Both the position numbers and the translations under genes were made by a program. Under the pieces are notes generated by a model. The model saw only the letters and a list, made by a program, of their open reading frames with translations. It did no database searches and was not told the origin of the DNA. A DNA stretch of 64,000 bases from Eledone cirrhosa (Eukaryota), in assembly GCA_964016885.1 (NCBI GenBank), contig OZ024743.1:224502001-224566000 (forward strand). Reading direction: 5' to 3'. This document shows positions 44,501 to 46,847 of this stretch, in pieces. The stretch's first letter is position 1. Every line of letters starts with the position of its first letter.

Positions 44501-44534
<34 letters not shown>

Positions 44535-44771
44535 CATTTAGAAACACACAGATACATGCGGACACACACATATATACATGAATGCATCCGCACCCAACTG
44601 TGAGTTAAGGGTGCCAACTTCACCGATGTTGCTCAATGAATGACTGGGACAGACCAATTCAGTTTGAACCAGACTGAACCAGTATCAGAGTTAAAAATAC
44701 ATTATGAAGAGAGAAGAAACATTTAGATATAATTAGTAATAAAATGTATCATACCTAAACTGTTCCTAAAT

Positions 44772-44859
44772 TCCTCGACTACGTAGTTTCGTGGCATAAA
44801 CAAAAACAATATATCAAAGATATAGAGTCCTTGCGAGGTCTGCCGACTTATCAAGAGGA
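44772..44859 (-). ncRNA. Type I hammerhead, U3-A8 core (copy 1; copy 2 at 45363-45450)
   Basis: Reverse complement of 46054-46141. Confidence 0.8.
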
Positions 44860-46053
44860 TACCTCATTTTACTAGTCTCAAGAACGCGTCTACACGACGT
44901 GAGAAAGAATCCCAAAAGGCGGAGGGGGAGATAGTCACGCGATATAACGGTCGAGAAACAGAGCTAAGCCTCTTATAACCACGAAAAAAATACCACGGAG
45001 GCGGAGGGGGTATTCATATCGAGGCCGTAGAAGAGGTAGTGAAGAAGGCGAGAAGTATGAGTAATGGAAGCTTTCCAGTTGTCCCCACACTTCAAAGATT
45101 GCTCGACCAGAGGGAGTTATTAATACATTTAGAAACACACAGATACATGCGGACACACACATATATACATGAATGCATCCGCACCCAACTGTGAGTTAAG
45201 GGTGCCAACTTCACCGATGTTGCTCAATGAATGACTGGGACAGACCAATTCAGTTTGAACCAGACTGAACCAGTATCAGAGTTAAAAATACATTATGAAG
45301 AGAGAAGAAACATTTAGATATAATTAGTAATAAAATGTATCATACCTAAACTGTTCCTAAATTCCTCGACTACGTAGTTTCGTGGCATAAACAAAAACAA
45401 TATATCAAAGATATAGAGTCCTTGCGAGGTCTGCCGACTTATCAAGAGGATACCTCATTTTACTAGTCTCAAGAACGCGTCTACACGACGTGAGAAAGAA
45501 TCCCAAAAGGCGGAGGGGGAGATAGTCACGCGATATAACGGTCGAGAAACAGAGCTAAGCCTCTTATAACCACGAAAAAAATACCACGGAGGCGGAGGGG
45601 GTATTCATATCGAGGCCGTAGAAGAGGTAGTGAAGAAGGCGAGAAGTATGAGTAATGGAAGCTTTCCAGTTGTCCCCACACTTCAAAGATTGCTCGACCA
45701 GAGGGAGTTATTAATACATTTAGAAACACACAGATACATGCGGACACACACATATATACATGAATGCATCCGCACCCAACTGTGAGTTAAGGGTGCCAAC
45801 TTCACCGATGTTGCTCAATGAATGACTGGGACAGACCAATTCAGTTTGAACCAGACTGAACCAGTATCAGAGTTAAAAATACATTATGAAGAGAGAAGAA
45901 ACATTTAGATATAATTAGTAATAAAATGTATCATACCTAAACTGTTCCTAAATTCCTCGACTACGTAGTTTCGTGGCATAAACAAAAACAATATATCAAA
46001 GATATAGAGTCCTTGTCGTGTAGACGCGTTCTTGAGACTAGTAAAATGAGGTA

Positions 46054-46141
46054 TCCTCTTGATAAGTCGGCAGACCTCGCAAGGACTCTATATCTTTGAT
46101 ATATTGTTTTTGTTTATGCCACGAAACTACGTAGTCGAGGA
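46054..46141 (+). ncRNA. Type I hammerhead, U3-A8 core (further copy at 46645-46732)
   Basis: TCCTC-TTGATAA-GTCGGCA..TGCCAC-GAAAC-TACGTA-GTC-GAGGA. Confidence 0.8.
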
Positions 46142-46801
46142 ATTTAGGAACAGTTTAGGTATGATACATTTTATTACTAATTATATCTAAATGTTTCTTC
46201 TCTCTTCATAATGTATTTTTAACTCTGATACTGGTTCAGTCTGGTTCAAACTGAATTGGTCTGTCCCAGTCATTCATTGAGCAACATCGGTGAAGTTGGC
46301 ACCCTTAACTCACAGTTGGGTGCGGATGCATTCATGTATATATGTGTGTGTCCGCATGTATCTGTGTGTTTCTAAATGTATTAATAACTCCCTCTGGTCG
46401 AGCAATCTTTGAAGTGTGGGGACAACTGGAAAGCTTCCATTACTCATACTTCTCGCCTTCTTCACTACCTCTTCTACGGCCTCGATATGAATACCCCCTC
46501 CGCCTCCGTGGTATTTTTTTCGTGGTTATAAGAGGCTTAGCTCTGTTTCTCGACCGTTATATCGCGTGACTATCTCCCCCTCCGCCTTTTGGGATTCTTT
46601 CTCACGTCGTGTAGACGCGTTCTTGAGACTAGTAAAATGAGGTATCCTCTTGATAAGTCGGCAGACCTCGCAAGGACTCTATATCTTTGATATATTGTTT
46701 TTGTTTATGCCACGAAACTACGTAGTCGAGGAATTTAGGAACAGTTTAGGTATGATACATTTTATTACTAATTATATCTAAATGTTTCTTCTCTCTTCAT
46801 A

Positions 46802-46847
<46 letters not shown>

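Follow-up and report, generated by a model that had tools for sequence, protein, structure and literature searches.

A young hammerhead repeat family of Eledone cirrhosa with the two-site 3' ends of Penelope-like elements: a non-LTR retrozyme probably copied from a circle

Two kinds of mobile repeat come closest to the one described here, the non-LTR retrozymes of metazoans and the Penelope-like elements (PLEs). In the portions of the retrozyme accounts compared here (Cervera and de la Pena 2020, PMC7229834; Li, Clavereau and Pollet, bioRxiv 10.64898/2026.07.22.740005), retrozymes are non-coding tandem repeats with one type I hammerhead ribozyme per unit and a GC content below 50%. They are present in thousands of copies, are predicted to form well-paired circles, and share their genomes with PLEs. 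The same applies to the family reported here from Eledone cirrhosa. Its unit of 591 nt exceeds the 150–450 or 170–450 nt given in the relevant part of the first account (PMC7229834) and lies within the 51–972 range given in that of the second (bioRxiv 10.64898/2026.07.22.740005). On the other hand, it differs in its U3-A8 core with a 57-nt stem II and in a ribozyme predicted to be blocked in the circle, and its dispersed short arrays with fixed 3' ends (sites A and B) and inverted two-arm inserts do not appear in the compared parts of these retrozyme descriptions. Also, unlike the retrozymes described there, this family has no homology to a coding PLE terminus that we could find.

Endonuclease-bearing PLEs, as portrayed in the compared sections of Craig et al. 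2021 (PMC8557442) and Frangieh et al. 2024 (PMC11167929), share with our family 5' truncation, an inverted 5'-truncated partner copy, and a "tail" at one end. Two internal reverse transcriptase (RT) start sites, AT-rich or microsatellite targets, and the U3-A8 core, a known variant in PLE hammerheads, are further likenesses in the parts of these papers compared (PMC11167929, PMC4209133). The Anolis PLE protein cuts and extends both DNA strands, two internal RNA start sites bound its tail, and a dimer has been predicted (PMC11167929). By comparison, our family has no ORF, its arms run over several units, and its tail is 165 nt long, as against 30–40 in the sections compared (PMC8557442). The Chlamys MRC1-type elements, non-coding PLE derivatives with multicopy head-to-tail inserts, are also similar, but according to the same sections they mostly lack hammerheads and are usually 3'-similar to an autonomous partner (PMC8557442).

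Circles have been shown for other retrozymes, as the relevant part of PMC7229834 reports. Mobilisation of retrozymes by PLEs and circular templates for cDNA longer than one unit have both been proposed before (PMC7229834, PMC4209133, bioRxiv 10.64898/2026.07.22.740005, in the parts compared), so the mechanism favoured here is not a new idea. How retrozymes re-enter animal genomes, and why the copies of PLEs arise in tandem and inverted form, tailed at one end, are presented as open questions in the corresponding parts of PMC7229834, PMC8557442, PMC11167929, and bioRxiv 10.64898/2026.07.22.740005. In the present family, the two-site signature of PLEs is found on a ribozyme repeat that encodes no protein. 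We propose, with a probability of about 0.68, that it is a non-LTR retrozyme whose 591-nt circle is copied by a borrowed PLE RT/endonuclease priming from both ends of a (TA)n break. The initial annotation of this DNA knew of no description of the family. Our search of the published texts returned no description of the family, of a retrozyme with a PLE two-site tail, or of a count of the one-A-one-B rule set out below; at the same time, the insert is one of thousands of loci, and unit lengths of 51–972 bp had already been reported for retrozymes. What appears to be new is the family itself, the two-site tail on a retrozyme, and the count; the kind of repeat is already known.

The insert and its ribozyme

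The window, that is, the whole 64,000-nt stretch analysed (contig OZ024743.1), contains a 591-bp non-coding unit in two perfect arrays of 2.51 and 1.34 units, joined 5'-to-5' within (TA)n. The tandem and inverted layout of about 2.5 and 1.3 units around position 46015, as initially annotated, proves to be exact, and the arms do stop at different positions of the unit, u247 and u80. Unit positions count from the base that follows the predicted cut (u1 = 46137). The features are as follows.

44503..44531, no strand: left (AT)n target flank, (AT)14.5
44530..46015, minus strand: B arm, 1486 nt, 2.51 identical units; 5' end u535, 3' end site B (u245-247)
44530..44538, minus strand: site B as terminus, u239-247, putative RT start site; internal copy 46375-46383 on the plus strand
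44532..44696, minus strand: 165-nt "tail", u81-245, at one end only; internal copy 46217-46381 on the plus strand
44772..44859, minus strand: complete type I hammerhead, position from the unit map
45363..45450, minus strand: complete type I hammerhead, position from the unit map
45954..46015, minus strand: hammerhead 3' half, cut by 5' truncation (the left arm begins inside stem II)
46015..46015, no strand: 5'-to-5' inversion junction, one base common to both arms
46015..46807, plus strand: A arm, 793 nt, 1.34 identical units; 5' end u470, 3' end site A (u80)
46054..46141, plus strand: complete type I hammerhead, U3-A8 core, predicted cut after C46136
46137..46727, plus strand: 591-nt monomer between two predicted cleavage sites, u1-u591, GC 41.6%
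46145..46198, plus strand: hairpin predicted directly upstream of site A, with its pairing conserved between the subfamilies
46307..46370, plus strand: hairpin predicted directly upstream of site B, with its pairing conserved between the subfamilies
46645..46732, plus strand: complete type I hammerhead from the descriptor scan, predicted cut after C46727
46801..46807, plus strand: site A as terminus, u74-80, putative RT start site; internal copy 46210-46216
46805..46848, no strand: right (TA)n target flank, (TA)22

At a lag of 591, neither arm contains a single mismatch, which bears out the recent event supposed at the outset. No RT or endonuclease frame, as an autonomous PLE would have, is present in any reading frame of the circular unit, the longest of which is 86 aa; the initial annotation had likewise reported neither protein. 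The insert is one very young copy of a protein-free mobile repeat.

Altogether the insert contains four complete hammerheads and one half, with one type I hammerhead per unit. The ribozyme was found by a descriptor scan and consists of a 5-bp stem I (46054-46058 with 46137-46141), the U3-A8 core, the 57-nt stem II, and a stem III of 3 bp with a palindromic tetraloop. An Rfam scan gave no hammerhead model at E<=1, only noise from TA-repeat hairpins, and the segment 46040-46160 folded alone is no better than its shuffles (z 0.23). The core is intact in 21 of 22 aligned copies. Between subfamilies, the core and stems I and III are identical at 35/35 positions as against 209/293 elsewhere (P 2e-5). 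Judged by these alignments, the ribozyme core is under strong constraint. According to predicted energies, the ribozyme-active fold lies 5–10 kcal/mol above the minimum-energy fold in the circle and in linear RNA, and in the predicted circle the ribozyme is folded shut. In the relevant part of the Xenopus account, one of nine retrozymes cleaved in vitro (bioRxiv 10.64898/2026.07.22.740005).

The ribozyme strand of the predicted circle has an energy of -172.6 kcal/mol and is 62% paired (z -6.0 against 60 shuffles), as compared with z -0.6 for a circular fold of the opposite strand; the circles of five units of an older family, introduced below, give z values of -3.7 to -7.2. With its tandem repeats, one hammerhead per unit, lack of coding capacity, GC content, and well-paired predicted circle, the unit is a non-LTR retrozyme by the sequence-level definition set out in the relevant part of PMC7229834, which agrees with the "retrozyme-like" label given initially.

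Elsewhere in the window there is an 11-kb TA-rich array (24217-35246), a 34-bp minisatellite (6275-9081), and a 49-bp minisatellite (62556-64000).

The family and its two 3' ends

Exact matches to a 19-mer of the ribozyme number 7,681 in the genome, against none for its reversed control, so the motif is not a chance occurrence. The first 100 of the 7,681 matches fall in 48 loci, from which we estimate a family of ~3,700 loci, or ~4 Mb. A search with the whole unit returned 615 candidates; most of the 40 that were scored are 99–100% identical to it, and the youngest copies are 100% alike. We mapped the 37 loci of best identity (the window included), 47 other loci taken by position, and a chance find (L132). 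The counts leave out two loci of an old subfamily (L091 and L194), two short old arms in L073, the second copy of the insert in L079, and, in L102, an internal switch of 125 nt, so that 83 loci with 128 arms remain. In L079 the whole two-arm insert is duplicated, with the copies 2.55 kb apart. There is also an older sister family (150 matches), about 71–79% identical to the unit. It was considered as a coding partner and rejected because it is non-coding too.

The initial annotation had suggested a genome-wide tabulation of unit ends as a check; tabulated for these 83 loci, the units show random 5' ends, (TA)n targets, and 3' ends that are largely fixed. In 125 of the 128 arms the 3' end is at one of two sites 165 nt apart, A (n=65; range u70-85) or B (n=60; range u225-253, nearly all 241-247), and the three remaining arms (in L075, L094, and L100) end elsewhere. 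Two arms are present at 45 of the 83 loci and are always joined 5'-to-5', with an overlap of 0–6 nt at most junctions. One arm ends at A and the other at B in 43 of these 45 loci; there is no A+A and no B+B pair, and two loci have a third kind of end. If ends were chosen independently, such a pattern would have a probability of about 1e-13. The rule is found in both samples (21/21 two-arm loci of best identity, 21/23 of those taken by position). In the old sister family, 17 of 20 hand-picked loci with two arms show a clean A+B pair, and in the other 3 a later insertion has interrupted one arm. Single arms end at A in 21 cases, at B in 16, and elsewhere in one.

The combination of one A and one B end is the two-site "tail" signature of PLEs, and PLE-type two-site priming is very probable. 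The one-A-one-B rule is counted here as near strict, unlike in the PLE accounts as far as they were compared. Priming by an RT from both ends of a break in (TA)n, as first suggested, is supported by the A+B loci, whereas the idea that the two ends were primed independently does not fit two different fixed sites in 43/45 two-arm loci.

No arm has its 3' end at u207, the unit's best (TA)n look-alike, and base pairing by itself therefore does not determine the sites. In L1 twin priming, the two DNA ends use a single RNA as template and the resulting cDNAs join by their 5' ends through microhomology, but the second site is variable and is chosen by base pairing on linear RNA. The present inserts differ from this in that neither site varies and each of the two arms is longer than one unit. 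In the hairpins predicted before A and B, 97–98% of the pairing is kept between subfamilies, mostly via one-sided changes. Pair-count measures that are robust to relatedness are not significant (6 two-sided pairs; 254/500 shuffles as high), and the support for the hairpins consists of these mostly one-sided changes and a better fit than that of slid controls.

Candidate Penelope-like partners

Intact ORFs with an RT, a CX2-5CxxC linker, and GIY-YIG at the C terminus were found in the genome, among them one of 938 aa (L137) and one of 1096 aa (L139). We call them Neptune-type by the linker motif alone, a motif common to Nematis. Inverted inserts of this type (L142, L152, and window 48329-48690) are A+B pairs in (TA)n. 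The L137 family resembles the retrozyme in its (TA)n target, its U3-A8 type I hammerhead, its A+B inverted inserts, and the position of its site A, 82 nt after the cut as compared with 80 nt in the unit. It differs in being coding, in a shorter tail (about 65 nt), in the lack of significant similarity to the unit, and in the identity of its best copies, 94–98% as against 100%. A blastn comparison of the unit with 50 GIY-YIG loci showed no similarity beyond microsatellite sequence and one insertion into a TA run, further loci retrieved from the genome gave no homologous terminus either, and an alignment with the Neptune-type terminus was no better than shuffles, in a sample that takes in some of the PLE families. 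Given the missing sequence link and the 94–98% identity of the L137 copies, the partner is best stated as a candidate class and not as a named family.

A Naiad-type RT, the driver named in the initial annotation, is unlikely. The unit has a full hammerhead, whereas Naiads are without canonical hammerheads, and in cephalopods they are remnants (PMC8557442, relevant section). The GIY-YIG domain is C-terminal in the best 30/30 matches examined (150 of 10,595 candidates scored with a GIY-YIG query), and the intact ORFs are Neptune-type. Naiads do target (TA)n, according to the same section (PMC8557442), a target also used by the Neptune-type families of this genome. A 454-aa frame in L173 was also considered as a partner and rejected as a LINE endonuclease-like insertion.

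Other sequences of PLE kind are present elsewhere in the window. The pair at window 48329-48690 is a short inverted A+B pair of the L137-family terminus with a U3-A8 hammerhead near 48575. Short near-perfect inverted pairs at 46849-47170 and 49404-49640, between TA runs, resemble 5'-to-5' joined ends of other PLE families, and broken RT and GIY-YIG-like frames at 35467-37004 and 39282-39677 belong to another PLE family. Such inverted remnants with type I hammerheads are frequent in the loci examined. Two other loci contain different hammerhead repeats: a C3-G8 type I motif in tandem with a 310-bp period and at least 4 copies (L073, 6492-7422), and another U3-A8 motif whose unit seems to be repeated (L083, near 1202). 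These tandem families are probably further retrozymes.

Template and mechanism

Under the reading that we prefer, a tandem copy would be transcribed by read-through, and its hammerheads would excise a monomer for a host ligase to close, by analogy with other retrozymes; the excision may be slow, take place in a dimer, or be assisted by a protein. A PLE protein, probably a Neptune-type dimer, would then attach to the RNA at a pair of sites, 165 nt from each other and each immediately 3' of a long hairpin, and would cut both (TA)n strands, as the in vitro behaviour of the Anolis protein suggests. One DNA end would prime at A and the other at B, giving the A+B pattern observed. Both RTs would roll round the circle for a random distance, which fits the random 5' ends and the arms of up to 7.2 units. 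Finally, the 5' ends of the two cDNAs would be joined by microhomology into an inverted two-arm insert, or one cDNA would be captured as a single arm, and both outcomes are seen. A more tentative picture, to which we would give somewhat less than even odds, is that of an asymmetric PLE dimer whose two RTs chase each other round one 591-nt circle, each from its own start site. The RNA would have captured the protein by shape (hammerhead, 80 nt, hairpin and site A, hairpin and site B) without homology, and the thousands of loci would be genomic readouts of the process. Because its RNA is short and defined, both start sites are mapped, the (TA)n target is simple, and there are intact ORFs for candidate proteins, the family allows the circle-template and the asymmetric-dimer models to be tested directly in the existing in vitro assay. 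Also, a young family of this size deposits perfect inverted repeats across the genome.

The template itself can be approached from the junctions between units. All 226 crossings of the cut site are seamless, with no base added or lost. The 5' ends are evenly spread over the unit, without enrichment at the cut site in the 128 arms (2 seen, 1.7 expected; P 0.18-0.52), and paired 5' ends are no closer in phase than expected (8/45 vs 7.7). More than half of the arms (77/128) are longer than one unit, and one locus carries 7.2 + 4.05 units. Seamless crossings and even 5' ends call for a template without an end at the cut site, either a circle or an uncut multimer. Haplotypes bear on this choice. 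At 24 common polymorphic sites, the variant is in every copy in 101 of the 106 locus-site cases with at least two copies (the other 5 being mixed), and among repeats of the same arm it is fixed in 55 of 57 cases and mixed in 2. Thirty-two variants are fixed in a single one of the loci sampled, and 17 of these, from 9 loci, are repeated in consecutive units of the same arm; one locus (L192) has five private variants in 7–8 copies across both arms. Only two ribozymes in the genome lack a certain 20 nt of stem II, and they are those of the two repeats in the tandem locus L207 (G000:C4:341451222-341454278); a pattern search of the genome for short stem II gave only one deletion locus. The locus haplotypes point to a bottleneck of one monomer, most simply a circle, and together with the seamless crossings they make the circular template of the initial annotation the likely usual one.

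The same observations have to be weighed against a PLE two-site priming whose usual template is an uncleaved linear multimer transcribed from an existing array, with circles rare or serving as an occasional haplotype reset. We consider this rather unlikely. Such a template would give seamless junctions and random 5' ends equally well, and it suits both the energetically disfavoured ribozyme-active fold and the Anolis PLE, for which uncleaved RNA is the main substrate in vitro and hammerhead mutants insert normally (PMC11167929). A homogeneous parent array could template any single insert, including that in the window, and would yield homogeneous daughters; a separate homogeneous parent would however be needed for each haplotype, and every repeat of a locus carries its private variants or, in L207, the unique stem II deletion. 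Arrays copied in this way would only shrink through 5' truncation, yet one locus has 7.2 + 4.05 units, and the strong constraint on the ribozyme core also speaks against it. Rare variants in only some repeats, across arms, are known from L053, L060 (twice), and L064, and one of them, u461 in L053, is common to both arms in exact 165-nt register, as a linear multimer would give. A related reading, in which the RT jumps end to end from one linear cut monomer to the next and no covalent circle is involved, is highly improbable. Template jumping is known for the R2 RT and yields tandem copies from a monomer, but it sits badly with 226/226 junctions free of added or lost bases, with 5' ends not enriched at the cut site, and with haplotypes so rarely mixed within an arm (2/57).

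We regard it as very unlikely that the unit belongs, as terminal repeat (pLTR), to a coding PLE still to be found and that the loci are 5'-truncated copies of that element. Every end feature is PLE-like, Xenopus retrozymes resemble pLTRs in the relevant part of bioRxiv 10.64898/2026.07.22.740005, and the loci examined are ~130 of an estimated 3,700. However, no arm in the 83 young loci or the old-family loci runs into a common upstream sequence or a PLE ORF, unit being followed by unit, and the 50 GIY-YIG loci have no match except the one insertion into a TA run. The initial annotation had itself set fixed ends, as of a coding PLE's terminal repeat, against its circle: the fixed ends are there, but a unit joined to a PLE ORF is not found in either set of loci. 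As to the layout itself, an assembly or chimeric-read artefact, or satellite expansion by unequal crossing-over, is hardly credible. No contig from 8 runs bridges the junction at 46015, and perfect inverted repeats can be read chimeras. Against this, the 45 two-arm loci, at 82–100% identity, have differing breakpoints and the same two outer ends, the old family behaves likewise, and short-read contigs of two runs carry junctions of the same geometry, with only 21–30 letters on the short side.

A circular monomer remains our preferred usual template. Rare variants in L060, L053, L064, and L094 are each present in exactly two repeats, mostly in opposite arms and in no consistent register; they could stem from a lesion on a circle that is read more than once, from conversion of one arm by the other, or from an error in polishing. 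In runs X1 and X9 the unit is found as one closed contig of 621 and 620 nt, free of the abundant flanking repeat, a hint at most of a circle, since tandem DNA would look alike. Runs X1, X2, X7, X8, and X9, under five organism labels, contain units about 99–99.8% identical to that of the window, each in one or a few long contigs. These near-identical and apparently monomorphic units under five other labels would fit vertical descent as well as a circle that also moves between species. Runs X3 and X4 contain many unit variants.
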